This document shows, in pieces, positions 1,243-37,167 of a DNA stretch of 64,000 nucleotides. A model generated the notes under the pieces. That model was given only the letters and a program-made list of their open reading frames with translations, did not search any database and was not told the origin of the DNA. The DNA comes from Gammaproteobacteria bacterium. GTDB lineage: Bacteria > Pseudomonadota > Gammaproteobacteria > JACKNK01. Both the position numbers and the translations under genes were made by a program. The stretch is taken from positions 204,782-268,781 of the forward strand of contig JACKNK010000006.1 in assembly GCA_024234955.1 (NCBI GenBank), read 5' to 3'. The number at the start of each line of letters is the position of its first letter. Position 1 is the first letter of the stretch.

Positions 1243-1312
1243 TGCCACGGGTAAGATGCGGAGGGCTACCACCGCATCGCTCGCGCATCACCACCACGCA
1301 AAGGACCGCGTC

Positions 1313-11853: not shown

Positions 11854-12878
11854 GTGACTCGTCGCAGTAAGGGAATGGTGGCCGACAACATCAGCAACAA
11901 GGTTGCCGGCTCGGGAATGGGCATTTCAACGCTGTTGATCGCGGCGACCACCGCACCGGCGGCGGCAATCCGGTTGTTGGTGTCGAAGCGGATGCTCTGT
12001 TCCATCTCGATATGCACGAAATCGGCGCCCAGGGACCGGGTGTAATCCCCCTGCACATTGGTGGTCGCGCCGAGGCCGGCGAAGTCCTGTCCATCGACTG
12101 AACCGTTGATGGCCTGGTTCAGCACATCATTTACGTCAAGCGTGTTGTAGCCGTAGGTCACCAGTCCCGCCGCTTCGAGAAACGCATCGACGGCGAGCAT
12201 ACCGCTGCTAACGCTGCCGTCGCCCGCCGTGACCACGGCATCGGTATCGGCGGGCATGATCGGATGATTGTCCAGGTTGAAACCGTGTATCTGCCAGGCG
12301 TCGCGTTCCCCGGCCCCGGTCCACGCTTCATGCACTTCCTGAAAGATCGATTCGGTCAGGTGGGCCACATCGGCGGTCCCGACACCGTTGGCATTGCGGT
12401 GCGCGCCCGCCATCAGGAACCCTGCCGCGTTCACATCCCGGTAGATGCTGGCGGCGATTTCCCAGCTGTTGGTGTCAAAGCGCGGGTGCGGCGCCTCGAT
12501 CAGGACCTGGACATCGGCGCCGGTGTTGAAAAAGTACGATCCCCAGCCACGGGTCTGCTGATCGTTGACCAGTTGCTCACGCAGGCCGAGATACGTGTTC
12601 CCGGTGTTGCTGTCGGTGAATTCAACGACTTCGTAGTCCAGGGCGGCGGCCTGCGCATCCGCCGAGACCGTATCGCCACTGGCGATGCTGTTGGCGAGAC
12701 TGCGAAAGGCGCTGCGTTGGGCCAGATCCGGCGCCACATACAGATTGCTCCCGGAGACGAAACTGAGGTTCTTGAGGCGCTCGACTTCATCAATGAAGCT
12801 GCCGCTCTCGATGAGCATGGCCTGGGCCTGACTGCCCATGAACAAAATACCGGCGGCGACCAATCTTTCCAGACGCAT
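11850..12878 (-). CDS. Secreted protein with a C-terminal PEP-CTERM sorting signal (putative exosortase substrate), function unknown
   Basis: Start MRLERLVAAGILFMGSQAQA is a signal peptide. C-terminus PIPEPATLLLMLSATIPLLRRVT has a PEP motif, a TM helix and basic residues. The raw ORF's long N-terminal extension (694 aa) is rejected. Confidence 0.65.
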   Translation of the reverse strand: MRLERLVAAGILFMGSQAQAMLIESGSFIDEVERLKNLSFVSGSNLYVAPDLAQRSAFRSLANSIASGDTVSADAQAAALDYEVVEFTDSNTGNTYLGLREQLVNDQQTRGWGSYFFNTGADVQVLIEAPHPRFDTNSWEIAASIYRDVNAAGFLMAGAHRNANGVGTADVAHLTESIFQEVHEAWTGAGERDAWQIHGFNLDNHPIMPADTDAVVTAGDGSVSSGMLAVDAFLEAAGLVTYGYNTLDVNDVLNQAINGSVDGQDFAGLGATTNVQGDYTRSLGADFVHIEMEQSIRFDTNNRIAAAGAVVAAINSVEMPIPEPATLLLMLSATIPLLRRVT

Positions 12879-12944
12879 TAGAAACCGAGCCCAACCTGTC
12901 AAACACAGGCCAAATACCAGAGCGGCGCAGATTATCATGCCACC

Positions 12945-14759
12945 ATGAACAGCCCGACCATCGTTTACCGCATCCACCCCGTCGATCCGAAACTGCACAC
13001 CTTCGAGATCGTGCTCGAAATCGCCTCTCCCGACCCCGCCGGTCAGCGTCTCAGCATGCCGGCCTGGATACCCGGGAGTTACATGATTCGCGACTTTGCG
13101 CGGAACGTGACTCAGCTCGCCGCCGAATCGGCCGGCCAGTCGGTGGCAACGCGCAAGCTCGACAAGCAGACCTGGATCTGCGATCCCTGCACCGGCCCGC
13201 TCACCATCCGTTATCAGGTCTATGCCTGGGATCTTTCGGTCCGTAGCGCACACCTGGACACCACCCACGCGTATTTCAACGGCAGTTCGGTGTTTCTCGC
13301 GGTTGACGGCCAGACGGACAAGCCGTGCGCGGTGGACATCCAGCCCCCGGCGCGGGATGCCGTGACCGAGGTTGCGCAATGGCAGGTCGCGACCAGCCTG
13401 CCTCGCGACGGCGCCGCAAAGCACGGCTTCGGCAGGTACCGGGCCGACGATTACGACGCGCTGATCGACCACCCGGTCGAGATCGGCAATCTCACCTTCC
13501 TCGCCTGGGAATCGCATGGCGTACCGCACGAGATGGCGATATACGGTCGCCACGATGCCGATACCGACCGTCTGGCGGCAGACCTGAAACGCATCTGCGA
13601 AACCCATATCGATCTGTTCGGGCAACCCGCGCCGATGGATTACTACCTGTTCCTGGTCATGGCGGTCGGCGACGGTGTCGGTGGGCTCGAGCATCGCGCC
13701 TCGACCAGCCTGATATGCCGTCGCGACGATTTGCCGCGACGGGGTGCCGCAGGGATCGACAAGGGTTATCGGGACTTCCTCGGCCTGTGCAGCCACGAGT
13801 ATTTCCATACCTGGAACGTGAAACGCATCAAGCCGACGGTGTTTCTGCCCTACGACCTGTCGCAGGAAGTGCATACCCCATTGCTCTGGGCCTTCGAAGG
13901 CATCACCTCGTATTACGACGATCTCGGTCTGCATCGTTCCGGACTCGTCGATACGGCTGACTATCTCGACCTTCTGGCCAAGACCTTGACCCGAGTTCAG
14001 CGCGCGACCGGTCGTCGCCGCCAGACCGTGACCGAATCGAGCTTCGATACCTGGACGCGCTTCTACAAACAGGATGAAAACGCTCCGAATGCCATCGTCA
14101 GTTACTACACCAAGGGCGCCCAGGTGGCCTTGGCGCTGGATCTGAAATTACGTCTCGAGAGCGACGGGGCCGCCACTCTCGACGACCTGATGCGTCGCCT
14201 TTGGCAAGACTTCGGCCAGCGGAGTCGCGGTGTGGGCGACGATGACATTCAGGCCCTTGCCAGCGAGCTGGCGGGGACCGATCTCAGCGCATTTTTCACC
14301 AAGGCCCTGCATTCCACCGACGACATCGAGCTCGCCGATCTGCTTGGTGAGTTCGGTGTCGATTGGGTGTTGCGTGCGGCCGCGAACGCCGATGACGCCG
14401 GCGGACGCATCCCGACCGCTTCGACACCGCGCGTCGTGCTTGGCGCCCGCATCGGGGAAGACCCCGTCGGGGCGCGTGTACTCAATGTGTATGAACACGG
14501 CGCAGCGCATCAAGCCGGGCTTTCAGCGGGTGACGTGATCATTGCTGTGGATGGTCTGCGGGCCACCAGCAAAACCCTGGATGCGACGATCGCCCGGGGC
14601 GGCGAACGGCCGCGCACGATCAGCGCCTTTCGGCGCGATGAATTGATGAGTTTCACGTTGCGGCCCTTGCCCGCACCGCACGACACTATCGAACTGCGCC
14701 TGTCCGAGGCGACCGACGCCTCTCGCCGAGAGCGCCGCGCTTCATGGCTTCAAGACTGA
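12945..14759 (+). CDS. M61 family glycyl aminopeptidase with C-terminal PDZ domain
   Basis: 604 aa with the HEYFHTWN zinc-binding motif and a C-terminal PDZ-like region (GARVLNVYEHGAAHQAGLSAGDVIIAVDG). Confidence 0.8.
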   Translation: MNSPTIVYRIHPVDPKLHTFEIVLEIASPDPAGQRLSMPAWIPGSYMIRDFARNVTQLAAESAGQSVATRKLDKQTWICDPCTGPLTIRYQVYAWDLSVRSAHLDTTHAYFNGSSVFLAVDGQTDKPCAVDIQPPARDAVTEVAQWQVATSLPRDGAAKHGFGRYRADDYDALIDHPVEIGNLTFLAWESHGVPHEMAIYGRHDADTDRLAADLKRICETHIDLFGQPAPMDYYLFLVMAVGDGVGGLEHRASTSLICRRDDLPRRGAAGIDKGYRDFLGLCSHEYFHTWNVKRIKPTVFLPYDLSQEVHTPLLWAFEGITSYYDDLGLHRSGLVDTADYLDLLAKTLTRVQRATGRRRQTVTESSFDTWTRFYKQDENAPNAIVSYYTKGAQVALALDLKLRLESDGAATLDDLMRRLWQDFGQRSRGVGDDDIQALASELAGTDLSAFFTKALHSTDDIELADLLGEFGVDWVLRAAANADDAGGRIPTASTPRVVLGARIGEDPVGARVLNVYEHGAAHQAGLSAGDVIIAVDGLRATSKTLDATIARGGERPRTISAFRRDELMSFTLRPLPAPHDTIELRLSEATDASRRERRASWLQD

Positions 14760-15185: not shown

Positions 15186-16256
15186 TCAGTCGTATCGCCG
15201 AAAACCGATCAGAGCGAGGCCGGCACCCAACAGTGCCAGCGGCATCGGCATCGGAACGCCATTGAGTTGGTCCGGGGTCAGCAACAACACATGGCGGTTG
15301 CCATTGATATCCAGCGCATCGACCAGGATCTGACCGAGATCGTTGATGGCATTGGCGCGTTCAATCGTCCAGCCCGTTGCCCCGGGATCGAGCAGGGTAT
15401 TGAGGTCATAGAACATGCCACCGCTGAACAAGAAGGCATAAATACCGGAAAGCCCATCGACGTAACCGATCGCCTGACCGTAATTATTGACATCCTGGGC
15501 GTAGGACCAGCGTTCGCCTGACAAGGCGCCCAAGTCCACCAGATCACCATTCGCTTCCCAGAGAATTGCATGGGTATCGCCGCCGGCCGTCTGGGCCCAT
15601 CCGACCGTGACGTTGTTGTCGTTGATGGCGTTGGCGCGAGCGCCCTGATTGGAATCCAGACCATCCAGGGTAACGACATCGCCATTGCTGGTGGCCCGGA
15701 AGCCGCGCTGCACGCTGCCGCCGTTGGCTTCATAGTGGCCGGCAATGGTGCCGCTTGCGTTGATGTCCAGGCCTTCGCTATACGTCGGCCCGAGTTCGGC
15801 CAATGGCGCACCGGTGCTGATGTCGTCGGCCCAGCGCGTCGCTTCACCCGTGCCGTTGTTGTAGACCGTCCCCGCAATCTGGCCACTATTGTTGATGGCG
15901 CCGACATAGGAGCCGCTACCGGTATGGCTCAGCGTATTGCTGGTCGTTCCGGAGAAGGATTGGGTGCTGTAGCCAGCCCCGATATATCCCACCACCGTTC
16001 CGGAGTCGTTGATGCCGACGCCTCTTCCGGTGCCCAGGACGGTCTCGGTGACCCCCCCGAACGTGTCCCACCGCACCGCATTTCCATCATGCGTACCGGC
16101 GATCTGTCCGGATTCGTTCAGGTCCAGGCCTTCCACGTCCGCGCTCAATCCGATGCCCTGAGCGACATCCGTGATGGTGAAGACCACGGCGTGTGCGGAA
16201 GCCCCGAGGATCAGCGAGAACGCGCCGATGAATATTGCCAAGCGGTTCGACGTCAT
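15186..16256 (-). CDS. HAF-repeat extracellular protein with a variant PEP-CTERM-like C-terminal anchor
   Basis: Signal peptide MTSNRLAIFIGAFSLILGASAHA. Repeated NDSGTVVGY / NNSGQIAGT / NASGTIAGH / NNYGQAIGY units. Tail VPMPMPLALLGAGLALIGFRRYD. GGAG Shine-Dalgarno before the second ATG, at 16256. Confidence 0.65.
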   Translation of the reverse strand: MTSNRLAIFIGAFSLILGASAHAVVFTITDVAQGIGLSADVEGLDLNESGQIAGTHDGNAVRWDTFGGVTETVLGTGRGVGINDSGTVVGYIGAGYSTQSFSGTTSNTLSHTGSGSYVGAINNSGQIAGTVYNNGTGEATRWADDISTGAPLAELGPTYSEGLDINASGTIAGHYEANGGSVQRGFRATSNGDVVTLDGLDSNQGARANAINDNNVTVGWAQTAGGDTHAILWEANGDLVDLGALSGERWSYAQDVNNYGQAIGYVDGLSGIYAFLFSGGMFYDLNTLLDPGATGWTIERANAINDLGQILVDALDINGNRHVLLLTPDQLNGVPMPMPLALLGAGLALIGFRRYD

Positions 16257-16400
16257 ATCCGTCTCCATGTCGATGAATCGTTGTCGCCGTCCTTAGCAAA
16301 ACTCGCGCCTCAGCGGTCGGAAACACGGCGGGACAGCGGAAAATGACGCATCTCGATCCGGGGTGTCACGCGGCTCGCGACATCGTTGTCAGGTCGGCTG

Positions 16401-22132: not shown

Positions 22133-22921
22133 ATGAGTCGCATCCAGCGGGTGGTGCAGATCACCGATACCCATCTGTTCTCCGATCCATCGCGTGCCCT
22201 CAAGGGCATCGTCACCGATGCCTCCTTGCGTGCGGTATTGGCGGCAGCGCACAACGATCTCGTCGGTGCGGATCTGTTGTTGCTGACGGGAGACCTGGCT
22301 CACGATGAGGTCGAAGCGACGTATCAGCGCCTCCGTGCGACGCTTGCAGCGCTCATTCCCGGACAATTGCCCGTCCGCGCCATTCCAGGGAACCATGACG
22401 ACCCCGCCTTGATGATTCGCCATTTCGGGCAAGCGGACAGCGTTGTCCTGGGCGATTGGTTGTGCCTATCGCTGGATTCCCATCGTGATGGACAGGTCGA
22501 AGGCACACTCCGCGCCTCCGAACTCCAACGCCTCGATCGGGAGCTGGCCGAAACGCGTGCCAGCCATGCCCTGATCGCCGTGCATCATCATCCGGTTGAT
22601 GTCGGTTCACTGTGGATGGACGGCATCGGTCTGAGCAATCATGCCGCGCTGTTTGAGGTGCTCAACCGTCACGACAAGGCCCGCGCGATCCTCAACGGGC
22701 ACATTCATCAGGAATTCGAGGGTGGGCGCGATGGCATTGCAGTTTACGGTACGCCATCGACCAACGTTCAGTTCCGCGCACGCAGCGATGAGCCTCAATT
22801 TGCCGATCTGGAGCCGGGGTACCGTCGCTTGGCCTTGTACCCGGATGGCCGCATCGACACCGAGGTGGTGCGTGTCCCCGGCGTGGTCTGCAACCTGAAC
22901 GACGAAGGGAGTTACGAGTGA
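22133..22921 (+). CDS. cpdA: 3',5'-cyclic-AMP phosphodiesterase CpdA (class III metallophosphoesterase)
   Basis: ITDTHLF, GDLAHD, GNHD and HHHP metallophosphoesterase motifs. 262 aa. Confidence 0.8.
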   Translation: MSRIQRVVQITDTHLFSDPSRALKGIVTDASLRAVLAAAHNDLVGADLLLLTGDLAHDEVEATYQRLRATLAALIPGQLPVRAIPGNHDDPALMIRHFGQADSVVLGDWLCLSLDSHRDGQVEGTLRASELQRLDRELAETRASHALIAVHHHPVDVGSLWMDGIGLSNHAALFEVLNRHDKARAILNGHIHQEFEGGRDGIAVYGTPSTNVQFRARSDEPQFADLEPGYRRLALYPDGRIDTEVVRVPGVVCNLNDEGSYE

Positions 22922-27814: not shown

Positions 27815-28300
27815 TCAGGTCGTATCGCCAATCAGCCGCGATAGCATCGCGTCCACATCCGAGCCCCGGGGCGTTTGGTCCAACGGGGTCCAGGATTGAT
27901 CCGCCTCCAGCCGAAAACTACCGACGAATTCATGGGGCGGTCGGCTTCCCCATTCACGGGGTGACAACATCGACCAGAGCGTGCGGTCATCGTCGCGTCG
28001 ATACAGGTGGTAAACCTTCCCCGGGATACGTTTGAAGGCGCATTCGGCGCGATGCAGTTCCTGGTCCCGGCGCGCACCCTCCAGAATGCGCCGGGCCTCT
28101 TCCTGCAAGGCCTGCATCTGGTCGGCGATGACCCGCAGCTTGGCGTGCGTATGGGTCGCGACCGAGGCATCCGCGCCACTGATCTGGCGGGCGATGTCCA
28201 CCAGATCGGTCGCCGCCCCGAGTCGGCTGACTGGGTAAGGCGCACTGCGGGCATCGCCCTGATGGTTCGGGCCGGAATACTTGCTGGCGTCATCGGCCAT
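27815..28300 (-). CDS. Conserved hypothetical protein (possibly DUF2452-like)
   Basis: 161 aa. Last gene of the minus-strand operon 30809→27815. Confidence 0.45.
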   Translation of the reverse strand: MADDASKYSGPNHQGDARSAPYPVSRLGAATDLVDIARQISGADASVATHTHAKLRVIADQMQALQEEARRILEGARRDQELHRAECAFKRIPGKVYHLYRRDDDRTLWSMLSPREWGSRPPHEFVGSFRLEADQSWTPLDQTPRGSDVDAMLSRLIGDTT

Positions 28301-28309
28301 GTCGTTCGC

Positions 28310-28783
28310 TCACAGGTGTTCGTCGATACCGTGCGCCTTCAGGCCCCAGGCGAACAGCGAACTGACCCGCTTGTTGGCGGTGCGCAGGCGCTCGGCCAGG
28401 GTGTTGAGCAGGTCTTTGAGAACCGGATACCCGACTTCCGGATGGGCATCGAGGTACACGCGCAGGATGTCGCCGGGGATCACGCCCAGCTCGCAGTCGC
28501 TGATCGCGACCACGCTGCCACTGCGCGGTTTCAGGTCGAACAGGCACATTTCGCCAAACACCGTGCCCGGCCCAAGATCGCTGTATCCGGGGCGCAGACT
28601 GCGGTCGTCGTCGAGCGCGACTTCACCGACCACCCGTACCGTCCCGCTCAAGACCACGAACACATCGCACTGGCTGTCGCCTTCGTTGAAAACGTGTTCG
28701 TGCACCGTGCAAAGGCGCCGCTGCCACGCGTCACCTTCGGGAAAGTCGGGGGAGTCGAGCAGATTCTTGAGTGCGTTGGACAT
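28310..28783 (-). CDS. Stand-alone cyclic-nucleotide-binding (CAP-family) domain protein without a DNA-binding domain
   Basis: 157 aa. …GTVFGEMCLFDLKPRSGSVVAISDCEL… is the cNMP-binding beta-roll with the phosphate-binding cassette (GEM…R.A). No HTH. Confidence 0.7.
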   Translation of the reverse strand: MSNALKNLLDSPDFPEGDAWQRRLCTVHEHVFNEGDSQCDVFVVLSGTVRVVGEVALDDDRSLRPGYSDLGPGTVFGEMCLFDLKPRSGSVVAISDCELGVIPGDILRVYLDAHPEVGYPVLKDLLNTLAERLRTANKRVSSLFAWGLKAHGIDEHL

Positions 28784-28788
28784 GAGAT

Positions 28789-29625
28789 CTATCCGGGGTG
28801 ATCGGTGGGTTTGTGACCGGTGGCAACAAAGACGGCGGCGAAGCCCCAGGCTTCGGGATCGTCGCTGATCTGACGGATCACGGCTTCTTCCGCCTGACCG
28901 AGCTGCTTCTGTTCGTCGCTGAGCTGTTCGAGTTTGAAGCCGGTGGTGATGTCGAGAAAGTTGCGCATGCCGAGGTCGGCACTGGTCACGGTATGCACGA
29001 ACACGCCAACCTGATCGAACCCGTTGCGCGCCAGCAGGGTGCCAAGCTTGCGCCCGACATGGCGGTCACCTCCCCGTGCCTGCTGAGCCTGGGCGGCACG
29101 TTGCGTGAACGAGGTGAAGGTTTCCGGTTCCGGGAACAGCGTCAGCCAATCGTCATCGATGTCGAGAATCGCAAGAATGCCGCCCGGCTTTAGTGTGCGC
29201 AGAGCCGCTTCGAAGGCGCGTTCCGGGTGTTCGAGATGCTGAAACAGGAAACGTGCGTAAATGAAATCGAACTGCGCCTCGCCCAGATCGAGTTCATAGA
29301 CATTGGCCTGCTGGAAACGGAGATTCGTCAGCCCGGCGGCGTCCGCCGCCGCCTGCGCTTCCTTGAGCAGATCGGGACTCAGGTCAACACCCGTGACCCG
29401 ACCGTTACCCACCATGCGCGCGATCTCGCAACTGACGATCCCGGGGCCGCAGGCCATGTCCAGGACATCCATGCCTTCCCGCAATCCGGCCCGACTGAGC
29501 AACTGACGTTCCAGCGCGGTGGCAATCGCCGCCTGCTGCTTCAGACGATCGAGCTCCTTCTGGTTCTCATCGAAGCTGCCAAAGGCGTAGGAACCCGCAG
29601 CGGTATGGGTATTGCTGGTGCTCAT
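28789..29625 (-). CDS. Class I SAM-dependent methyltransferase
   Basis: VLDMACGPGIVS is motif I. 278 aa. ATGA overlap with the upstream gene. Confidence 0.75.
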   Translation of the reverse strand: MSTSNTHTAAGSYAFGSFDENQKELDRLKQQAAIATALERQLLSRAGLREGMDVLDMACGPGIVSCEIARMVGNGRVTGVDLSPDLLKEAQAAADAAGLTNLRFQQANVYELDLGEAQFDFIYARFLFQHLEHPERAFEAALRTLKPGGILAILDIDDDWLTLFPEPETFTSFTQRAAQAQQARGGDRHVGRKLGTLLARNGFDQVGVFVHTVTSADLGMRNFLDITTGFKLEQLSDEQKQLGQAEEAVIRQISDDPEAWGFAAVFVATGHKPTDHPG

Positions 29626-30809
29626 TCGTTTTCGGTTTCCTCAAGTTGTTGCAGGGTATCGAGCCAGTTCTGGGTGGTGCCGCGCAGGCGCTCGCAGAGA
29701 ATCACCGACAGATTCAGCAGCACCGGGGCAACGATTTCCGGCATCTTTTTCAAGGCGCGCTTGATGAAGGACTGGGTCAGGATCAGCAGTTCCATATCGG
29801 TATTGGCCACCACCTGGGCGGTGCGCGGCGTCTTGGCGACGAACGCGATCTCGCCGAACACCTGACCAGGACCGACCACCGCCAGGGAATGGCGTTTGCC
29901 ATCCGCATCCCGCCCCCAGACCTCGGCGACGCCATCGAGCACGACGAACATCTCGTTACCGATGTCCCCCGGACGGATGATGATCTCACCCGCCTTGCAG
30001 GGCAGCACCGTACCGGAATCCAGAAAGGCCCGCGCCTGCACTTCGTCCAGGCCTTTGAGCAGGCCGATGCCTTCGCGCGGATCGACATGCAGGCGGTCTT
30101 CCATCAAGGCCCAGAACCCATCGGTATCGACCAGGCGCTTGTTGATATGGACGGCATGCGCCGGGAATTCCGCGATAAACCATGCGGTCCCGGTCGCATC
30201 CGCCGGCAGTTTGCGGGCCTCGCGCCAGAACGGGGAGCGCACCGCCCTCATGTGTTCGATGTCCTCGGCCATGAACACCAGCGGGACGTGGTAGCCGGCA
30301 TCCTTGTCCATGAAGCCATCGGCGTAACGGCGATACCCGAGCTGCTCGTAAAACTCGACCAGGGACGGGGTGCAATTGCAGAAATCGAAACGCACGCCGT
30401 TTTCGCGGGCGAAGCGGAATATGGCCGCGAGCAACGCGGCGAGAACCGTGGACCCGCGCCAGTCCGGCGCCACCATCAGGCGAGAGGTCATGGACAGGGA
30501 TTTCGCGGGAAATTCGGCCCAATGTTCGAGCTGATAAATCCGGTTCCAGTACGCATCGAAGCCGGTCTCACCCGCGAGATTGATGCGCACCGTGGCCACA
30601 ATCTCTTCCCCGGCGGCGGCATAAAGCAGGGTCGCTTCATCGTCCAACGGGTCGTAAAGTCGCTTGCCCGCATGGTCGGCGTAGCTCGGGCGTTTGCCCA
30701 TTTCTTCTACGTAAACCGCATAGCGAAACCGATAAATACGCTCCCGCTCCGCTTCCGTAGCGGCAACCTGAATCTCAGGCCGGACGAGATTATCGATGGA
30801 TTCGTTCAC
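29622..30809 (-). CDS. Autoinducer-synthase-like N-acyl amino acid synthase (GNAT) fused to a C-terminal cNMP-binding domain
   Basis: N-terminal half RIYRFRYAVYVEEMGKRP…FCNCTPSLVEFYEQLGYRRY resembles LuxI/FeeM-type acyltransferases (exosortase-associated N-acyl amino acid synthase family). C-terminal half …PGQVFGEIAFVAKTPRTAQVVANTDMELLIL… is a cNMP-binding domain. 395 aa. Confidence 0.6.
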   Translation of the reverse strand: MNESIDNLVRPEIQVAATEAERERIYRFRYAVYVEEMGKRPSYADHAGKRLYDPLDDEATLLYAAAGEEIVATVRINLAGETGFDAYWNRIYQLEHWAEFPAKSLSMTSRLMVAPDWRGSTVLAALLAAIFRFARENGVRFDFCNCTPSLVEFYEQLGYRRYADGFMDKDAGYHVPLVFMAEDIEHMRAVRSPFWREARKLPADATGTAWFIAEFPAHAVHINKRLVDTDGFWALMEDRLHVDPREGIGLLKGLDEVQARAFLDSGTVLPCKAGEIIIRPGDIGNEMFVVLDGVAEVWGRDADGKRHSLAVVGPGQVFGEIAFVAKTPRTAQVVANTDMELLILTQSFIKRALKKMPEIVAPVLLNLSVILCERLRGTTQNWLDTLQQLEETENE

Positions 30810-30929: not shown

Positions 30930-32249
30930 ATGAAACGTCTTCTTTCCCTGACGCTTTTCGTCACCTGTTTGTCAACCACCACCCCAGGTGTGGCCGGCAT
31001 TGTCGAAGACATCCAAAAGCTATTCCAATCGGGAGATGCCGCCGGTGCTTACGCGCTTGGACAGCAACACCTGCTGGCGCTGGAGGGAGATCCGGCCTTC
31101 GACTACGAATACGGTGTGGCCGCCATTGATGCAGGCCATTACAGCCAAGGGGTATTTGCGCTCGAACGTGTGCTGCTGCAGACGCCAAATGATCACCGTA
31201 CCCGCCTTGAGCTCGCACGCGGCTATTTCTTGCTGGAACAGTTTGATCGGGCGCGCAAGGAATTCGAAACCGTGCTGGCATCGGAGCCCCCCCAAAGCGT
31301 GGCGGAAAATATCCAGCGCTTCCTCAACATCATCCGAATCCAGGAAGGCCGATACAAATCCACGGCCAGCCTCACCCTGGATCTTGATCGCGGCTGGGAC
31401 AGCAACGTCAACAGCGCGCCCTTCAGCCCAAACTTCGAGTCCCCCGTGCTTGGCCCAGGCACTCTGGCGGCTGGGTCCACCCAACTCGGTGATTATTACA
31501 CTGAGGCCAATGTCGGAACGTCGCTGACCATCCCGGTTTCACCAGGCCGTTACATCGGTGCGGCTTTCGACATCCATCACCGCAGCAACGATCAGCGGGA
31601 TCTGTTTGATACCGACGCACAGACCCTGACCCTGTCCCTCACCGACAATGTCGACACCCTGCAGACCCGCTTCGCTTTCCGTGCGCAGAACTACGAGCTC
31701 GACCACAGCACCTACCGAACCTTGGGCAGCCTTTCCGTCGACGCGCGTCAAACACTCAGTGCGGACACCCAGATCACCGGGTTCCTCAGTTTGGCGAGCC
31801 AACATTACCCTGGGGGAGATGTTCGCGACTCACACCTGATGAACGCAGGTATCGGCGTCATTCACGCCTTGCCGCTTCCGGGTAAACCAGTCGCCTTTGC
31901 CACCGCGTACATTGGTCAGGAAACGCCCCGCCAGAACAACACCGACGCTGATGTGGTGGCCAATCGAGCGATCAAGGGACTGAGCGGTGGGATCCAATGG
32001 ACGCTTGGACCCTCGACCAGTCTGACAGCTACGCTCGCATGGCAGAACAGCCGCTATGCAGGCGAGAGCCCGATCTTTCTCGCCCGTCGCGAGGACGATT
32101 TTGGCAGTGCCGGCGTCACCCTCAAACACCTGCTTGATGACCGATGGAGTCTCAGTGCGGAATTGAGCACCTCCACCAACGACTCCAATTTCGCGATCAA
32201 CAAATACGACCGTGATGTGGTCAACATGAACTTGCGTTACGAGTACTGA
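30930..32249 (+). CDS. Outer-membrane protein with N-terminal TPR-like domain and C-terminal beta-barrel (DUF560 / Slam-like surface-protein translocon)
   Basis: Signal peptide MKRLLSLTLFVTCLSTTTPGVAG. TPR-like helices. Alternating amphipathic strands. C-terminal …MNLRYEY with an aromatic last residue. Confidence 0.5.
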   Translation: MKRLLSLTLFVTCLSTTTPGVAGIVEDIQKLFQSGDAAGAYALGQQHLLALEGDPAFDYEYGVAAIDAGHYSQGVFALERVLLQTPNDHRTRLELARGYFLLEQFDRARKEFETVLASEPPQSVAENIQRFLNIIRIQEGRYKSTASLTLDLDRGWDSNVNSAPFSPNFESPVLGPGTLAAGSTQLGDYYTEANVGTSLTIPVSPGRYIGAAFDIHHRSNDQRDLFDTDAQTLTLSLTDNVDTLQTRFAFRAQNYELDHSTYRTLGSLSVDARQTLSADTQITGFLSLASQHYPGGDVRDSHLMNAGIGVIHALPLPGKPVAFATAYIGQETPRQNNTDADVVANRAIKGLSGGIQWTLGPSTSLTATLAWQNSRYAGESPIFLARREDDFGSAGVTLKHLLDDRWSLSAELSTSTNDSNFAINKYDRDVVNMNLRYEY

Positions 32250-32260
32250 CGCTCGTCTCA

Positions 32261-34474
32261 ATGTCCCGTCAACGTCTCGTCCGACTCCTGCTCAGCCTTG
32301 CAATCACCGCGCTCTTCGCTATTCACGCGATGGGCGCCCGTAGCCTGCCCTTCATCGAACAACTGGAACGCTGGGGCTACGACCTGCGCCTGATCGCCAC
32401 ACTCAAGGGTGGCATCGACAAACGCATCGTGATTGTCGACGTCGACGAAGCCAGCCTCGCTGAGGTCGGGCACTGGCCCTGGCCACGCGACACCCTGGCG
32501 CAACTACTGGACCAATTATTCGCGCACTACCAGATTTACATTCTCGGCATGGATATGGTTTTCGCCGAGGCTGAAGGCAAATCCGTCCTCTACGAGCTGG
32601 ACCGCCTCGCAACCGGCCCCCTCTCAGGCCAGCCCGGGTTTATCGAGGCCTACCACACCTTGCGCCCAGGACTTGAGCATGATCGCCTGTTCGCGGAAGC
32701 CATCGGTCGGGGGTTTGTCGTCACTGGCTTCTCCGCCTCACAGCGCCCCGGCACACATGGCGCCTTGCCGATCCCCTTGGTCAGCCCGGTGCCACCCGAT
32801 ATTGATGCCCTGCCACTGTTTGAACGCTATGGCGTCACCGGCAACCTTGCCGAGATCCAATCGGCAGCCGTTGGCGGGGGCTTCTTTGACAACCCTGCGT
32901 TTGACCCGGACGGCGTCTATCGCGGTGTGCCGCTGGTCTACAAGCACGCGAATGCCCTATACAGCTCCCTGACACTGTCCATGCTGCGGGCGATGCTCGG
33001 CGACCCGCCGGTTGAGCTGGAATATGGCGATCCCCGAAATTCGGAACTCGATTCAATCCGGATTGGCGAAATCCGCATCCCGGTCAATCAACAGGGAATC
33101 GCCTTGGTCCCCTATCAAGGCCGCACCCCCGCATTCCGCTATGTATCGGCTGCGGATGTGCTCACTGGCCGCACCCCTGAGGAAGTCCTCGACAACGTCG
33201 TAGTGATCCTGGGTACCACCGCTCCCGGCCTTTACGACCAACGCACCACACCAATGCAGTCGAATTATCCCGGGGTAGAGGTGCATGCAAACCTGCTCGC
33301 CGGATTGATGAATGAAATGCAGGCAGACACCGCATTGCACAGCATCCGTCACCGGCCCGGCTGGACAGTTGCTTACGATTTGGTGTTGGTACTCGCTCTT
33401 GGTCTCATCCTCTCATTGACGCTCCCCTGGTGGGGGCCAGCATCCGGCATCTCCCTGGTATTGGCACTCGGAGCCGGTCTGATCGGCGGCAATCTCTACG
33501 CCTGGCAGACGCACAACATGGTATTGCCGTTGGCAGGACAGCTGTTACTTCTGTTGACACTTCTGCTTTTCCATAGCGCCTACGGGTACCTAATCGAAGC
33601 CCGCAACAAACGCCGTATCGGTCGCCTGTTCGGGCAATACGTGCCGCCCGAAATCGTGGGTGAAATGAGCAAGCATCACAGCAGTTTCGGCATTGGCGGT
33701 GAATCGAGGGAAATGACCGTGCTGTTCTCCGATGTGCGCGGCTTCACCACGGTTTCTGAAGGGCTCGCACCGGATCAGCTCACTGCACTGATGAATGCGT
33801 TCCTCACGCCTCTGACCGGCGTCATACATAGCCATCGCGGCACCATCGACAAGTACATGGGTGACGCGATCATGGCCTTCTGGGGTGCCCCTCTGGATAA
33901 CCCCGCACACGCCTCGCTGGCAGTAGAGGCCGCACTAGCGATGCAGAGCCGCGTGCGCGAACTGGACACACAATTCAAGGCTCGAGGCTGGCCGGCGCTG
34001 GCCATCGGCATCGGTCTCAACACCGGTCATATGAACGTGGGCAACATGGGGTCGGAGTTTCGCATGGCATATACCGTGCTTGGCGATGCGGTAAACCTCG
34101 GCTCGCGTCTCGAAGGTCTGACCAAGTTTTATGGCGTCGGCATCATTGTCAGCGCGAGCACCCAAGACGCAGCAACGGGTTTCGTTTATCGCGAACTGGA
34201 TCGGGTCCGGGTCAAAGGCAAACACGAACCGGTGGCGATTTTCGAACCACTGGGTTCGGTTGACAGCATCGCTGAAGAGCGCGCCGCCGAGTTGGATTTG
34301 TGGAACCGCGCATTGACGGCTTACCGAGGCCAGAATTGGGCGAAAGCCCTGGAAACGCTGGATCGACTGGCTGATGACCGCCTGACCGAGATCTACCGCA
34401 TGCGCATCGAACAACTGTCAACGCAAACGCTGCCCGACGACTGGGACGCCGTATTCGAGCATCAGAGCAAATAG
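32261..34474 (+). CDS. CHASE2 sensor-domain class III adenylate/guanylate cyclase
   Basis: Periplasmic CHASE2-like region between an N-terminal TM helix and three further TM helices. Cyclase core FSDVRGFTT…DKYMGDAIMAFWG…YTVLGDAVNLGSRLE. Confidence 0.8.
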   Translation: MSRQRLVRLLLSLAITALFAIHAMGARSLPFIEQLERWGYDLRLIATLKGGIDKRIVIVDVDEASLAEVGHWPWPRDTLAQLLDQLFAHYQIYILGMDMVFAEAEGKSVLYELDRLATGPLSGQPGFIEAYHTLRPGLEHDRLFAEAIGRGFVVTGFSASQRPGTHGALPIPLVSPVPPDIDALPLFERYGVTGNLAEIQSAAVGGGFFDNPAFDPDGVYRGVPLVYKHANALYSSLTLSMLRAMLGDPPVELEYGDPRNSELDSIRIGEIRIPVNQQGIALVPYQGRTPAFRYVSAADVLTGRTPEEVLDNVVVILGTTAPGLYDQRTTPMQSNYPGVEVHANLLAGLMNEMQADTALHSIRHRPGWTVAYDLVLVLALGLILSLTLPWWGPASGISLVLALGAGLIGGNLYAWQTHNMVLPLAGQLLLLLTLLLFHSAYGYLIEARNKRRIGRLFGQYVPPEIVGEMSKHHSSFGIGGESREMTVLFSDVRGFTTVSEGLAPDQLTALMNAFLTPLTGVIHSHRGTIDKYMGDAIMAFWGAPLDNPAHASLAVEAALAMQSRVRELDTQFKARGWPALAIGIGLNTGHMNVGNMGSEFRMAYTVLGDAVNLGSRLEGLTKFYGVGIIVSASTQDAATGFVYRELDRVRVKGKHEPVAIFEPLGSVDSIAEERAAELDLWNRALTAYRGQNWAKALETLDRLADDRLTEIYRMRIEQLSTQTLPDDWDAVFEHQSK

Positions 34475-34476
34475 CC

Positions 34477-37167
34477 ATGAGCCATACATCATCCTTGAAA
34501 CCCCAGCTCATCCCGCCAGCCACTGTGGCCTGGCTGGGGCTGGTCGTGGTCGCCATGTTGCTGCTGGTATCACCGACATGGGCGGCTGAACCGATCGGAA
34601 AACTGATTGTCGCAGCGGGCAAGATTGAGGCCCTTGGCGTGGACGGCAAAGTCCGACGTCTGCGTCGCCAGGCCGAAATCTACAAGGGCGACACCCTGAT
34701 CACCGGCGGAGATGTGTTCGCGCAATTGCGCTTCAAGGATGGGGCATTGATCGCGCTGCGTCCAGACACCGAGTTCACCATCGAGGACTACCGCTTCGAC
34801 GGTGCCGAGGATGGCAGTGAACGCGCCATCTTCAAGCTGATCAAGGGCGGCTTCCGCACCATTACCGGCGCGATCGGCCACAAGAACAAGGAGAACTACC
34901 AGGTCTCCACCCCAGTCGCGACCATCGGCATCCGTGGCACCCACTATGGTGTCCGTCAGGTTACCCCTGAGCTCGCCGCGCAACGGCGGCAAGCTGGGGA
35001 GGACATTCAGCCCGGGTTATATGGCGGCGTCGTTGACGGAGAAATTGCTGTCCGCAACGGCGGTGGCGAAAATACCTTCGGCAATGATCGTTACTTCTAT
35101 GTGGCCAGCCCCGATGCCGCACCAGAGACCCTGATTGCGCCGCCCGGCGTGGTCTTCGATGAGGACGCCTCCAAACAGGCGGACAACCAGGACGACAATG
35201 CGGCGGATGGCGACAATCAGGGACAGGACGACACTCAGCAAGCACAGGGCAATGGGGACGACCAACAGGGCGATGGAGAAGGGACGGAAACCGCGCAGGG
35301 TGGGGCAGAAGGCGATGGCGCCTCTGCGGACCAGCAAGCGGGCGTCGAGGATGGGAATGGCGATACGACAGGTGACGGGGGCGAACCGGTCGGATCAGTC
35401 GCCGGCGATAGCACTAGCTCATCGAGCGATTCCGGCACCAGCTCGCGCACGGGCAATAGCACAGGCACCGGACCGTTAAGCAGCGCACTGGTGGTATCGA
35501 TCAATCCGGACACCAGCACCCTGCCAACGACTCTCAATAACAACGTCGTGCTGAGCACGTCGACCGAGAGCGTATTCACGTCCAACGAAACCGTGACGGT
35601 GAGCCAGGCCACCTCATCCTCGTTCACCCGGGCACCGGTGGGTGCCGGGGTGTCGCTGGCTTTCATTGATCGGCAAACCAGCCGCCTGGAACTGATAAGC
35701 AGTGTGCTTACCGACAACGGAACCGATAACTTTGCGATTTTTTACGACGTTGGAAGCAAGGACAACATTCAGGTCAAACAAGCTCGGACCCAAGGTTCCG
35801 GGGAATCCAATCAGACCCAGACGCATGCCTTCAATTTCGGTACTGCCACACTCGCGGAATTCGGGAAAGACGCTGCAAGCGGTGCCAGCTGGGGGCGTTG
35901 GTCTGGCGACTATGTCGTGACCACCGATGGCGCGAACAACGATCCGGTGACAGATCTTCACTTCGTGTATTCGCCCAGCCAGGCATCTTCCGCGACGATT
36001 TCCGCAGCCTCGAGCCGTGCCGAGCCAATCACTTTGTTTGACAAGATCAGCGACGCCACTACCGCCCCCACGGACCTTAACGGTAACGTCGGCAGTTACG
36101 AGTACTTTCTCGTTGGCATCAACTTCGCCACGCAAAAGCTCGTCGGGTACGAGGTCAAAGCCACTGTCGGCGGGGCAACCTATCAGGTCGAACTGCAGAA
36201 TGATCTGGCGCTTGCCGACGTTCTCAAAGATCAAAGTGCACAACTGACGGGCAAATGCACCGGTTGCGGAACCAGCACCAGCGTCACTTTGACCGGTGAT
36301 GGTTCGGTCATGTTCATCGACGATGCACTGAGTTACATCGGCGCCAGCTATTCACTTCGCGACAACAGCAGCAGCTACGGCATCGCCGGTGCTGCCGTAC
36401 TGCAGAGTGCGTTGACTCGGACCCAAGAGGTTAATGCCCCAAGCGGAGCAACCGCCCTCACCGCGTTTATCAGCGTGGACAGCAATTCCACCAAGAAGCG
36501 GGAAATTCAAGCCACCGTCCAGAATGGCACTACGAATTTGGTCAAGACCGCCACCGTGAACTCCGTCGGCAACGTCGTCACAAACACCATACAAGGCGCA
36601 AACACCAGCACAGAGAGTCGTTTCGAATCGAACCGTGCCTTCCTGACGGATACCGGTGGAAACACCGTCGGTGTCAACTGGGGGCGCTGGCAGGATGGCT
36701 GGAGCACCAAGATTTCAGGCGTCAACTCCGGTTCGGCGGGGCACGCCCATTTCATCTATTCAGACAAAGTCACCAATACCGCGAATTATCCCGCGCTCTC
36801 CTCGGCCTCATTCACATATCTGGGCGGAACATCCCCGACCGACGAGCTGGGACGGACAGGAAGTATCACCTCGGCAACGATGAGCGTGGATTTCCTCTCG
36901 CAATCCATCACTTCCTACAACATAAACGCGACCACTCCGGGAAGAACCTGGGCGCTCAACTCCACAACCACGACAAGCTTCGTCAGCGCCAAGAGCGGCA
37001 ACATGGCTCTCACCGGAACATGTACAGGTTGTAGCACAACGCCGGTAGTGGGTAGCGCGTCCACCGAATTCGTCGGCAACAACGCAAGCCATGCAATAAG
37101 CAGTTTTGGCGGCTCGATCGCCGACAACAGCAATCAGATTGTCGGCACCGCGTTGTTCAAGCGCTGA
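34477..37167 (+). CDS. Large secreted surface protein: N-terminal FecR domain, acidic low-complexity linker, Ser/Thr-rich region and two tandem roughly 260-aa C-terminal repeats
   Basis: Signal peptide. FecR-like GDTLITGGDVFAQLRFKDGALIALRPDTEF…GTHYGV. D/Q/G-rich linker at 35160-35420. Repeats start at SWGRWSGDY (about 35887) and NWGRWQDGW (about 36676). Each repeat ends with a C…TGxCTGC block. The protein ends …IVGTALFKR. Confidence 0.7.
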   Translation: MSHTSSLKPQLIPPATVAWLGLVVVAMLLLVSPTWAAEPIGKLIVAAGKIEALGVDGKVRRLRRQAEIYKGDTLITGGDVFAQLRFKDGALIALRPDTEFTIEDYRFDGAEDGSERAIFKLIKGGFRTITGAIGHKNKENYQVSTPVATIGIRGTHYGVRQVTPELAAQRRQAGEDIQPGLYGGVVDGEIAVRNGGGENTFGNDRYFYVASPDAAPETLIAPPGVVFDEDASKQADNQDDNAADGDNQGQDDTQQAQGNGDDQQGDGEGTETAQGGAEGDGASADQQAGVEDGNGDTTGDGGEPVGSVAGDSTSSSSDSGTSSRTGNSTGTGPLSSALVVSINPDTSTLPTTLNNNVVLSTSTESVFTSNETVTVSQATSSSFTRAPVGAGVSLAFIDRQTSRLELISSVLTDNGTDNFAIFYDVGSKDNIQVKQARTQGSGESNQTQTHAFNFGTATLAEFGKDAASGASWGRWSGDYVVTTDGANNDPVTDLHFVYSPSQASSATISAASSRAEPITLFDKISDATTAPTDLNGNVGSYEYFLVGINFATQKLVGYEVKATVGGATYQVELQNDLALADVLKDQSAQLTGKCTGCGTSTSVTLTGDGSVMFIDDALSYIGASYSLRDNSSSYGIAGAAVLQSALTRTQEVNAPSGATALTAFISVDSNSTKKREIQATVQNGTTNLVKTATVNSVGNVVTNTIQGANTSTESRFESNRAFLTDTGGNTVGVNWGRWQDGWSTKISGVNSGSAGHAHFIYSDKVTNTANYPALSSASFTYLGGTSPTDELGRTGSITSATMSVDFLSQSITSYNINATTPGRTWALNSTTTTSFVSAKSGNMALTGTCTGCSTTPVVGSASTEFVGNNASHAISSFGGSIADNSNQIVGTALFKR

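Follow-up and report, generated by a model that had tools for sequence, protein, structure and literature searches.

The gene at 29622..30809 of the window (the whole stretch of DNA analysed, 64,000 nucleotides) encodes one polypeptide in which a GNAT acyltransferase of FeeM/LuxI fold is genuinely fused to a complete cyclic-nucleotide-binding (CNB) domain, and this fusion is the dominant form of a large protein family. Based on the observed domains, the fold, the intact phosphate-binding cassette, the family-wide fusion, the operon, the recurrent fusion to a methyltransferase and the adenylate-type residues of a neighbouring cyclase, we consider it probable that the protein is a cyclic-nucleotide-gated N-acyl amide synthase, most likely responding to cAMP, and that its product is subsequently methylated. 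The architecture is explained most simply by a second messenger acting directly on the enzyme. The gene and its parts are as follows.

29622..30809, minus strand: GNAT-CNB fusion gene, ORF open for 395 aa (Pfam FeeM, Acetyltransf_5 and cNMP_binding; AF2)
30267..30776, minus strand: GNAT catalytic domain with FeeM/LuxI-type fold, aa 12-181
30135..30266, minus strand: family-specific helical extension, aa 182-225, also present in stand-alone relatives of ~220 aa
29742..30134, minus strand: cyclic-nucleotide-binding domain, aa 226-356, with N-terminal helices and an eight-stranded beta-roll
29817..29858, minus strand: phosphate-binding cassette FGEIAFVAKTPRTA, with G319, E320, R329, T330 and A331 (translation)
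29628..29741, minus strand: long C-terminal helix, aa 357-394, located where CRP has its C-helix (DSSP assignment, AF2 model)

That one ORF joins the two domains had been proposed in an earlier sequence-only reading, and both peptide strings quoted there are found in the translation of 29622..30809. The proposal is borne out by three Pfam matches above their cut-offs: FeeM (PF21926) over aa 25-181, with 55.4 bits against a cut-off of 27 and spanning profile positions 2-156 of 158; Acetyltransf_5 (PF13444), with 37.8 bits against 22.4; and cNMP_binding (PF00027) over aa 271-354, with 75.6 bits against 27.5. The ORF has a GTG start codon with GGAG 5 nt upstream. The AlphaFold (AF2) model of the full-length protein, a prediction that the same reading had suggested, is confident over both domains (pLDDT 92.4, pTM 0.85). 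A frameshift or misassembly joining two separate genes, which would have undermined the proposal, is excluded, as an identical protein is deposited (MCB1734537.1), more than 100 independent clusters show the same architecture and length, and confidence in the model stays high through the domain junction. Among the matches listed, at least 120 clusters at 90% identity share the N-terminal module, and nearly all of these 120 have a length of ~370-420 aa and a query coverage of 89-100%.

At 50% identity, ~930 clusters share the N-terminal module (E < 1e-30). As a domain-architecture search reveals, the fusion exists far beyond the window: the sensor domain is present in 113 of the 137 top representatives at this identity level (~83%). 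For this subfamily, this contradicts the earlier description of relatives as normally stand-alone and about 250 aa long, since stand-alone proteins make up 21-23 of the same 137 and measure ~220 aa, ending just past a WF..F motif. Members derive from Proteobacteria, Verrucomicrobiota, Actinomycetota, Nitrospirota, Chloroflexota, Spirochaetota and Ignavibacteriota-type MAGs. Literature searches for the GNAT-CNB architecture returned no paper on it.

Comparison of the full-length model with the PDB gave CNB matches only, and the N-terminal half was therefore modelled separately. Its closest folds are FeeM and the AHL synthases. The sequence profile of this half retrieved only TofI and BjaI from the PDB, weakly and with no link to FeeM, and a stand-alone homologue used as query for the FeeM link gave no match in the PDB. 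FeeM is a stand-alone protein of ~190 aa located inside a natural-product cluster. It shares only 16% identity with the GNAT domain of the fusion, which differs from it by the conserved extension, aa 182-225, and by the cNMP-binding domain. Conserved positions in the GNAT domain are R27, R29, Y30, E36, D56, R75, S109-R110 and R118, with Y154 invariant; in the extension, D183 and S192 are invariant and P193 and W210 nearly so. The LuxI family is invariant at R23, F27, W33, D44, D47, R70, E101, S103 and R104 (LasI numbering), of which Glu101 presumably corresponds to the proposed catalytic Glu of FeeM. In a low-confidence hhalign alignment with LasI (probability 0.17), seven of these nine residues are matched (R29, Y33, D53, D56, R75, S109 and R110), S103-R104 falling on S109-R110, whereas W33 is aligned to K39 and the Glu101 position is occupied by Met107, a position that varies within the family.

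The C-terminal half resembles cyclic-nucleotide receptors. The top Foldseek matches in the PDB are the CNB domains of CRP, GlxR, SthK and PKA (E ~1e-11), and profile matches in the PDB are to PKG and PKA. In such cassettes, G-E serves the ribose 2'-OH and R-[ST]-A the phosphate. The fusion protein carries the full G-E...R-T-A set (F318-G319-E320...P328-R329-T330-A331), so that the cassette looked for at the outset is present and intact, together with the conserved beta-roll glycines G281, G293 and G315. Over 234 CNB-bearing members, the cassette is conserved to 97% (G), 88% (E), 81% (R), 77% (S/T) and 80% (A), suggesting that ligand binding is under selection; in an 87-sequence alignment conservation is at least 90%, and ~15-20% of family members have a degenerate cassette in which Arg or Glu is missing. 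The RTA form of the cassette does not discriminate cAMP from cGMP, and a Thr after the cassette Arg is also found in cGMP-selective PKG domains. The C-terminal helix of the model may act as a dimerisation or lid element. It is followed by no HTH domain, the protein ending at aa 395, which excludes a role as transcription factor, the NCBI name given to the homologue from Caenispirillum.

The fusion gene is the first of a tight four-gene operon, in which it is followed by genes for a SAM methyltransferase, a small cNMP-binding protein and a DUF2452 protein.

28789..29625, minus strand: class I SAM-dependent methyltransferase, 278 aa (Pfam Methyltransf_25/11/31)
28310..28783, minus strand: stand-alone cNMP-binding protein of 157 aa, its gene following that of the methyltransferase by 5 nt (PF00027, 54.9 bits)
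27815..28300, minus strand: DUF2452 protein, 161 aa, last operon gene, after a 9-nt gap (PF10504, 179 bits)

The ATG of the methyltransferase gene overlaps the GNAT-CNB stop codon by 4 nt (ATGA), suggesting translational coupling of both proteins. Moreover, in P0029, P0031, P0033, P0122, P0197, P0238, P0248, L001 and L002 the GNAT-CNB protein continues at its C-terminus into the methyltransferase. Such end-to-end fusions, with the same gene order, occur in at least seven clusters, including four that stand as separate representatives at 50% identity, and one of these fusions is present on 11 contigs. A methyltransferase gene also adjoins the homologue in L081, L083, L092 and L094. It is not a universal partner, being absent in L085, L089, L093, L095 and L096, and none was detected at loci L003-L019. 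The solved relatives of the methyltransferase are small-molecule methyltransferases. The genes for the small cNMP-binding protein and the DUF2452 protein occupy the same positions in L081 and L082. No gene for an ACP, an acyl-CoA ligase or an exporter is linked to the fusion gene. Scans of the 120-bp divergent intergenic region for promoters, terminators and inverted repeats yielded nothing beyond chance and no CRP-like palindrome.

On the other side of this intergenic region, three genes lie on the plus strand.

30930..32249, plus strand: TPR protein of 439 aa with a signal peptide, its C-terminal region beta-barrel-like (Pfam TPR_19)
32261..34474, plus strand: CHASE2 sensor with class III nucleotide cyclase, 737 aa (CHASE2 173.5 bits, Guanylate_cyc 69.5 bits)
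34477..37167, plus strand: FecR-domain protein, 896 aa (Pfam FecR, 44.2 bits), completing a TPR/CHASE2-cyclase/FecR module

The TPR protein, a putative outer-membrane protein, additionally shows weak BBP2_2 and DUF2860 matches (Pfam) and, at its C-terminus, a weak EpsL match (NCBIfam); its gene is conserved in L081 and L082. The cyclase gene lies 1.4 kb from the fusion gene in divergent orientation, and its pairing with the operon is conserved in the same two loci, the entire trio recurring in L081. At the specificity positions the cyclase has Lys (GTIDKYMGD) and Thr (AYTVLGD), as does P. aeruginosa CyaB (3r5g), differing from the Glu/Gly of the Cya2 structure (2w01); by these residues it is a predicted adenylate cyclase. 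Neither this adjacent cyclase module nor the coupled methyltransferase or the second cNMP-binding protein had been mentioned in the sequence-only reading. Across the family, cyclase-domain genes are found at 9 of 27 full-length loci compared to 10 of 58 CNB-only controls, a modest enrichment in raw counts, the controls comprising twice the DNA. An unrelated gene of the kinase-AAA_16-TPR-cyclase type, ~1,460 aa, is located 28-32 nt from the distant homologues in L013 and L017, and such a gene lies less than 1 kb from that in L019. At most family loci no cyclase gene is present within 10 kb, and for many members, those of L085, L089, L093, L095 and L096, both a methyltransferase and a cyclase are missing from the vicinity. 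A candidate CpdA-like phosphodiesterase was also observed near the fusion gene.

For the fusion protein, we infer the identity of the ligand, the direction of regulation, the acyl donor, the acceptor, the product and the biological role as follows. The FeeM-type GNAT domain would take a fatty acyl chain from acyl-ACP or acyl-CoA and attach it to an amino acid, or to a comparable small amine, at the amino group. Binding of the ligand to the C-terminal cNMP domain of the same chain would switch GNAT output, cAMP-activated mycobacterial Pat being the precedent, and the translationally coupled SAM methyltransferase would then modify the product, for example to a methyl ester or an N-methylated lipoamino acid. 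In the window, the ligand would probably be supplied by the divergent TPR/CHASE2-adenylate-cyclase/FecR envelope-sensing module, such that an extracytoplasmic cue would raise cAMP and thereby turn on synthesis of the methylated N-acyl amide. The broadest form of this model, a widespread bacterial signal or lipid switched directly by cAMP without a transcription factor, with an envelope-sensing CHASE2 adenylate cyclase as the source of cAMP in this genome, appears quite unlikely to hold in full.

The sequence-only reading had assigned the protein to the exosortase/PEP-CTERM-associated synthases and had called it autoinducer-synthase-like. On that view, a quorum-type diffusible signal tied to PEP-CTERM would be produced by a synthase of either the PEP-CTERM-associated N-acyl amino acid type or the LuxI autoinducer type, which we regard as very unlikely. 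The acyltransferases of TIGR03694 are distant members of the same GNAT branch, but this model scores only 20.8 bits against a cut-off of 111.95, in a partial match of aa 12-117 to profile positions 9-123 of 241. The Pfam LuxI model (Autoind_synth, PF00765) gives no match at E ≤ 0.01, which excludes membership of the LuxI-type synthases; hence the autoinducer-synthase likeness holds at the level of the fold and not of the family. Moreover, the equivalents of LasI Trp33 and Glu101 are not conserved in the low-confidence alignment, no LuxR-type receptor gene is found among the eight genes of the locus, no exosortase gene is found in the fusion-gene locus, and the immediate neighbours are cAMP-signalling genes. 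PEP-CTERM-type genes and a deacetylase are indeed present in the window, as that reading had stated, but at 5.8-16.3 kb, that is 13-24 kb from the fusion gene.

5825..6838: XrtA-system deacetylase (TIGR03006, 284.4 bits, cut-off 276.2)
11850..13934: gene with a PEP-CTERM-like tail
15186..16268: HAF-repeat protein

Genes for tRNA modification, isoprenoid metabolism, an SbcC-like protein and RsmE separate them from the fusion gene, which, unlike TIGR03694 genes, adjoins no exosortase or PEP-CTERM gene. Both HMM score and gene context speak against placing the protein among the PEP-CTERM-associated acyltransferases, and we reject that assignment. The envelope might be involved in another way, through OlsB/GlsB-like N-acylation of ornithine, lysine or glycine to a lyso-aminolipid, followed by OlsG-like N-methylation of the head group, with cAMP tuning envelope lipids. 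Consistent with such a pathway, there is a weak match to the NCBIfam OlsB model (NF052554, 29.7 bits), PF13444, which we take to include aminolipid N-acyltransferases as well, is above its cut-off, the operon adjoins an envelope-sensing CHASE2/FecR/TPR module, and the Chromatiales relative L081 has an OlsF-like acyltransferase of 574 aa ~2 kb downstream of the operon. We nevertheless consider it unlikely, as the OlsB score is far under the cut-off of 350 and the window operon holds no OlsA-like O-acyltransferase gene. FeeM and the AHL synthases being the closest folds also speaks against it, although this comparison does not discriminate, since no solved OlsB structure is among the listed matches.

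The occurrence of CNB and GNAT domains in one chain, which is the logic of mycobacterial Pat, raises the question of whether the protein is a cAMP-regulated acyltransferase of lysines in target proteins and thereby a functional analogue of Pat. This is improbable: the Pat model (NF058543) is the top NCBIfam match but aligns to the CNB part alone (aa 269-359, profile positions 22-110) and reaches 36.5 bits where the cut-off is 460; the two domains stand in the opposite order; the GNAT domain is most like FeeM and the LuxI-type synthases, which are acyl-ACP/CoA enzymes acting on small molecules, and not like protein acetyltransferases; and its recurrent fusion with a methyltransferase of small-molecule type suggests a metabolic pathway. 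It is likewise improbable that the C-terminal domain senses neither cAMP nor cGMP and instead binds another ligand or serves dimerisation only. Some CRP/FNR-type domains and trypanosome PKA domains do bind ligands other than cAMP or cGMP, and the degenerate cassettes, the loci without a nearby cyclase gene and PDB matches that include cAMP-independent PKA regulatory subunits would all fit. Against this stand the full cassette and beta-roll glycines of the window protein, the conservation of the cassette in the large majority of members, and the nearby second CNB protein, adenylate-type cyclase and CpdA-like phosphodiesterase candidate. Extremely unlikely, finally, is a Pycsar-like anti-phage module in which an infection-triggered cyclic nucleotide acts on the CNB-fused GNAT as effector. 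In PADLOC, PycTIR effector models do match the CNB domain (E ~1e-9) and PycC matches the cyclase domain (E 1.7e-31), and the kinase-AAA_16-TPR-cyclase neighbours in L013, L017 and L019 are STAND-like; these PADLOC matches, however, reflect generic domain-level similarity. The locus has neither the cytosolic pyrimidine cyclase nor the CNB-TM or CNB-TIR effector of Pycsar. Its cyclase is a membrane CHASE2 sensor with purine-type (Lys/Thr) residues within a conserved envelope-sensing trio, its effector would be a biosynthetic-type GNAT coupled to a methyltransferase, its flanking genes are housekeeping genes (PolA, RsmE and an SbcC-like ATPase), and most family members lack a cyclase neighbour.

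Bacterial cAMP is usually thought to act via CRP-type transcription factors and, to our knowledge, direct allosteric control of an enzyme by cAMP has been documented in very few bacterial cases, Pat being the model. If the fusion protein is gated as proposed, its family would be a second and far more widespread case of a cAMP-controlled enzyme, spanning the ~930 clusters and many phyla, and a second messenger would control the synthesis of a lipid-like N-acyl amide that might act as a signal or belong to the envelope lipids. Additionally, the recurrent methyltransferase fusion offers a concrete two-step pathway open to testing. Like the fusion protein, Pat (Rv0998 / MSMEG_5458) combines a cNMP-binding domain and a GNAT acyltransferase in a single chain, and direct activation of catalysis by cAMP is established for these two CNB-GNAT fusions (PMC5861322, citing Nambi et al. 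2010). With direct CNB-GNAT regulation already known from Pat, the GNAT-CNB family may be regarded as a variant of it. Both differ in domain order, the CNB domain being N-terminal in Pat and C-terminal in the fusion protein, and in their GNAT domains, that of Pat being a protein acetyltransferase that uses acetyl-CoA while that of the fusion belongs to the FeeM/LuxI-fold branch. The long C-terminal helix, the conserved 45-aa extension and the coupled methyltransferase are further additions relative to Pat. The sensor domain and methyltransferase are without counterpart in LuxI-type AHL synthases (LasI, TofI, RpaI, MesI and BjaI), from whose systems the fusion locus also differs by the missing PF00765 match and LuxR partner.

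The clustering of TPR, CHASE2-cyclase and FecR gene types at 30930..37167 resembles that in Campylobacterota, where it has been described as a conserved cAMP pathway (PMC9239204). In S. meliloti, CHASE2 cyclases (CyaD1-type) have similarly been reported together with cAMP-controlled genes for FecR- and TPR-domain proteins (PMC5498481). The clusters of both groups signal via CRP/Clr-type transcription factors, and those of Campylobacterota include a phosphodiesterase, whereas the nearest cNMP receptors at the window locus are an enzyme fusion and the 157-aa CNB protein. The likeness of NAMEs, the synthase genes of which have been reported as unknown (PMC11580390), to the proposed product of the GNAT and methyltransferase is a purely chemical analogy, and no Roseovarius homologue of the fusion protein is among the 120 named matches listed. 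Among the cultured organisms with a family member are Caenispirillum salinarum AK4 (WP_009538674.1), Novispirillum sp. DQ9 and gamma proteobacterium SS-5. In public databases, members carry uninformative or wrong annotations, reading 'GNAT family N-acetyltransferase' or 'Crp/Fnr family transcriptional regulator'.

The fusion gene, an open reading frame of 395 codons at 29622..30809 on the minus strand, starts with GTG, is preceded by GGAG 5 nt upstream, and contains both peptide strings quoted in the sequence-only reading. Its product exceeds the gathering scores of three Pfam models:

aa 25-181 of the fusion protein: FeeM (PF21926), 55.4 bits against 27
fusion protein: Acetyltransf_5 (PF13444), 37.8 against 22.4
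aa 271-354 of the fusion protein: cNMP_binding (PF00027), 75.6 bits against 27.5

The claim that a GNAT acyltransferase and a cyclic-nucleotide-binding (CNB) domain are joined in one reading frame is thus correct. A search of 5.8 billion proteins yielded 133 matches to the fusion protein and, as an identical deposit, MCB1734537.1 ('GNAT family N-acetyltransferase', from a Gammaproteobacteria MAG, 276-kb contig). Nearly all of the 120 matches listed of these 133 measure ∼370-420 aa, cover 89-100% of the query and are 35-87% identical to it, and the hosts among them are Gamma-, Alpha- and Betaproteobacteria, Myxococcales and Melioribacteraceae; scanning genomes extended the host range to Verrucomicrobiota, Chloroflexota, Actinomycetota, Nitrospirota, Spirochaetota and Acidobacteriota-type MAGs. 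Run against 1.84 billion 50%-identity representatives, a profile built from the first 248 aa retrieved 930 proteins at E < 1e-30, or 2,275 if the limit is set at E < 1e-10. The sensor domain is present in 113 of 137 new top representatives, while 21-23 are ∼220-aa stand-alone proteins and longer fusions account for 7. Of the checks proposed in the earlier reading, the domain-architecture search showed that the fusion recurs widely, and AlphaFold2 gave a confident model over the full chain (pLDDT 92.4, pTM 0.85; 87-sequence alignment). A frameshift or assembly artefact is ruled out by the identical deposit, the recurrent full-length homologues and this model. One variant architecture, P0154 (545 aa), has two cNMP-binding stretches. 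The literature search turned up no account of a FeeM/NAS-CNB fusion, and database names for the family are unspecific; the components and the regulatory logic of CNB plus GNAT are all known already, so the fusion is not a new category.

In the acyltransferase half, the family profile matched TofI (E 0.006) and BjaI (E 0.02) best among PDB sequences, over the first conserved block only. R27, R29, Y30, E36, D56, R75, L111 and R118 are near-invariant in family alignments, and no variation is seen at Y154 (the Tyr position of GNAT motif B), G158, D183 or S192. An hhalign alignment to LasI, of low confidence with a probability of 0.17, placed R29, Y33, D53, D56, R75, S109 and R110 opposite R23, F27, D44, D47, R70, S103 and R104, and K39 and M107 opposite W33 and E101. 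A conserved helical extension spans residues 182-225 (D183, S192, P193, W210). As it is shared by stand-alone relatives, whose C-termini fall just past the WF..F motif, this extension is part of the catalytic unit, not a linker.

The C-terminal half matches the cyclic-nucleotide-binding domains of CRP, GlxR, SthK, PKA and PKG in Foldseek and PDB profile searches, and its phosphate-binding cassette is complete (F318-G319-E320 ... P328-R329-T330-A331). Among 234 sensor-bearing members, the cassette Gly is conserved in 97%, Glu in 88%, Arg in 81%, Ser/Thr in 77% and Ala in 80%, which indicates selection for ligand binding in most, not all, of the family. A helix of 38 residues (aa 357-394) follows, and the whole-chain model contains no DNA-binding domain after the CNB domain. 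The Caenispirillum salinarum homologue (P0120, WP_404379779.1) is named 'Crp/Fnr family transcriptional regulator' at NCBI; since it consists of GNAT, CNB and C-terminal helix only, with no DNA-binding domain, this label was probably transferred in error on the strength of the CNB domain.

The fusion-gene stop overlaps, in ATGA, the start of a gene for a 278-aa class I SAM methyltransferase, followed after 5 nt by a gene for a 157-aa stand-alone cNMP-binding protein and, 9 nt further on, by a DUF2452 gene; no terminator-like site was found between the operon genes. A methyltransferase gene also lies directly downstream of homologues in a Chromatiales MAG (L081/L082), in gamma proteobacterium SS-5 (L083), on a 2.5-Mb contig (L094) and in C. 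salinarum (L092), whose homologue shares 36% identity with the window protein. Moreover, the methyltransferase is a C-terminal fusion, with gene order kept, in P0029, P0031 (found on 11 contigs) and P0033, and is likewise fused in P0122, P0197, P0238 and P0248, each its own 50%-identity representative, and at Comamonas and Opitutus MAG loci (L001, L002). In P0216 (948 aa), a B12-binding radical-SAM domain, of a class in which carbon methylation is common, takes its place. The nearest solved relatives of the methyltransferase are small-molecule N-, O- and C-methyltransferases. Such recurrent fusion and adjacency is good gene-fusion evidence that the two proteins would catalyze successive steps on a single small molecule. 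Not every homologue has this partner: the methyltransferase is absent at L085, L089, L093, L095 and L096, and none was detected in the flanks examined of L003-L019.

Several of these loci have distinctive surroundings. In the cultured alphaproteobacterium C. salinarum (CP085224.1; L092 8001..10003), the GNAT-CNB and methyltransferase genes overlap by 4 nt and lie within a photosynthesis gene cluster, with crtC on one side and DUF3623/cobW, acsF, puhC and puhA on the other. At L094 (2652..6176), a RelA/SpoT (p)ppGpp synthetase gene on the same strand precedes the GNAT-CNB gene with a gap of 16 nt, the methyltransferase gene coming next, which could reflect co-transcription with the stringent-response machinery or chance. 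In a Telluria MAG (L095 2164..4901), the homologue directly follows genes for a kynurenine formamidase-type Cyclase, kynureninase and tryptophan 2,3-dioxygenase; the placement may point to an aromatic amine as acceptor, or may be coincidence. The Chromatiales relative, which is 81% identical, has a bifunctional acyltransferase of 574 aa resembling OlsF (Acyltransf_2, Acyltransferase, Acetyltransf_5; L081 11379..13103, minus strand) ∼2 kb downstream of the operon, a position occupied in the window by RsmE.

Divergently oriented, 120 bp upstream of the fusion gene, is a compact three-gene operon (30930..37167, plus strand):

30930..32249, plus strand: signal-peptide TPR protein with a beta-barrel-like C-terminus, outer-membrane type
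32261..34474, plus strand: CHASE2-class III cyclase
34477..37167, plus strand: FecR-domain protein, 896 aa

The seven-gene arrangement is kept whole in the Chromatiales relative. A CHASE2-cyclase/FecR/TPR cluster has been described as a conserved cAMP pathway in Campylobacterota (PMC9239204), and CHASE2 cyclases were reported with cAMP-controlled FecR- and TPR-domain genes in Sinorhizobium meliloti (PMC5498481). At the two positions that set substrate specificity in class III cyclases, PDB alignments show Lys (GTIDKYMGD) and Thr (AYTVLGD) in the window cyclase; Pseudomonas aeruginosa CyaB (3r5g) has the same two residues, whereas the Cya2 structure 2w01, of a guanylate cyclase although its entry title reads adenylate cyclase, has Glu and Gly. 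A chimeric bacteriophytochrome-adenylate cyclase (6fht) has a near-identical catalytic domain with Lys at the first position. On these adenylate-type residues, as in CyaB and unlike 2w01, cAMP is the predicted messenger for the fusion protein. A Metallophos protein ∼5 kb from the operon (22133..22921, plus strand) scores highest in NCBIfam on the model for the 3',5'-cAMP phosphodiesterase CpdA, where its 185 bits fall short of the cut-off of 225, and may serve this circuit by breaking down cAMP.

Cyclase genes beside distant homologues independently support the cyclic-nucleotide link. In Actinomycetota (L017) and Spirochaetaceae (L013), a cyclase-bearing gene lies 28-32 nt from a homologue of ∼30% identity and encodes ∼1,460 aa in which a Ser/Thr kinase and a STAND-like AAA_16 ATPase are combined with TPR (detected in L013) and, at the C-terminus, a class III cyclase; a gene of the same kind is found <1 kb from the homologue in a Bifidobacteriaceae MAG (L019):

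L013 11145..15536: kinase-AAA_16-cyclase gene
L017 11087..15511: kinase-AAA_16-cyclase gene
L019 11972..16354: kinase-AAA_16-cyclase gene

These three cyclase domains may be non-canonical, as a four-sequence alignment places Ile opposite the Asn of the window cyclase's AVN motif. Within the flanks examined, cyclase-domain genes occur at 9 of 27 full-length loci versus 10 of 58 CNB-only control loci, although the controls have twice as much DNA, a suggestive enrichment in raw counts.

We infer every biochemical step of the following scheme. The CHASE2 cyclase would make cAMP, which the C-terminal domain of the fusion protein would bind, switching on the FeeM-type N-acyltransferase; the N-acyl amide product would then be methylated by the coupled methyltransferase, and the 157-aa CNB protein may act as a buffer or a relay for this messenger. 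The switch is proposed by analogy with mycobacterial Rv0998/MSMEG_5458, for which direct activation of the GNAT by cAMP binding at the fused CNB domain has been reported (PMC5861322). Because no Roseovarius homologue is among the 120 named matches listed of the protein search, the link to the Roseovarius NAMEs, whose synthase was reported as unidentified (PMC11580390), would be a chemical analogy only.

A coupled methyltransferase would also suit aminolipid synthesis in the OlsB/OlsG manner, in which an amino acid is N-acylated to a lyso-aminolipid and its head group then N-methylated; with the OlsB model scoring 29.7 on the fusion protein against a cut-off of 350, we regard this as unlikely. 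A protein acyltransferase of the Pat type would share the combination of GNAT and CNB domains and seems improbable beside a partner related to small-molecule methyltransferases. There is likewise only a slim chance that the sensor domain binds no cyclic nucleotide, given how well most members keep the cassette.

The sequence-only reading had proposed a PEP-CTERM-associated, autoinducer-synthase-like enzyme, citing PEP-CTERM proteins and a locus-type deacetylase. These are indeed seen in the window, in a small region of exopolysaccharide/PEP-CTERM type that lies 13-24 kb away from the fusion gene:

5825..6838, minus strand: XrtA-system polysaccharide deacetylase (TIGR03006), 284 bits, above cut-off
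11850..13934, minus strand: 694-aa protein with a PEP-CTERM-like tail
15186..16268, minus strand: HAF-repeat protein

The deacetylase adjoins a GT2 glycosyltransferase, an FAD/NAD oxidoreductase and a flippase-like protein (6696..9822, minus strand); no exosortase was identified among the window ORFs scanned. The defining tests of the PEP-CTERM/AHL-synthase reading failed, however: TIGR03694, the PEP-CTERM/exosortase-associated acyltransferase model, gave 20.8 bits against a cut-off of 111.95, so the family assignment did not hold, and the Pfam LuxI model did not match the fusion protein. This reading is very improbable. Still less credence is due to a Pycsar-like defence module, for which PADLOC matches were at domain level only and the defining tests failed as well.

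The left edge of the window has two features:

52..1035, plus strand: MmeI target-recognition-domain fragment
1256..1843, plus strand: IS200-like Y1 transposase

An IS200-type Y1 transposase is also found near the homologue in L083/L084.
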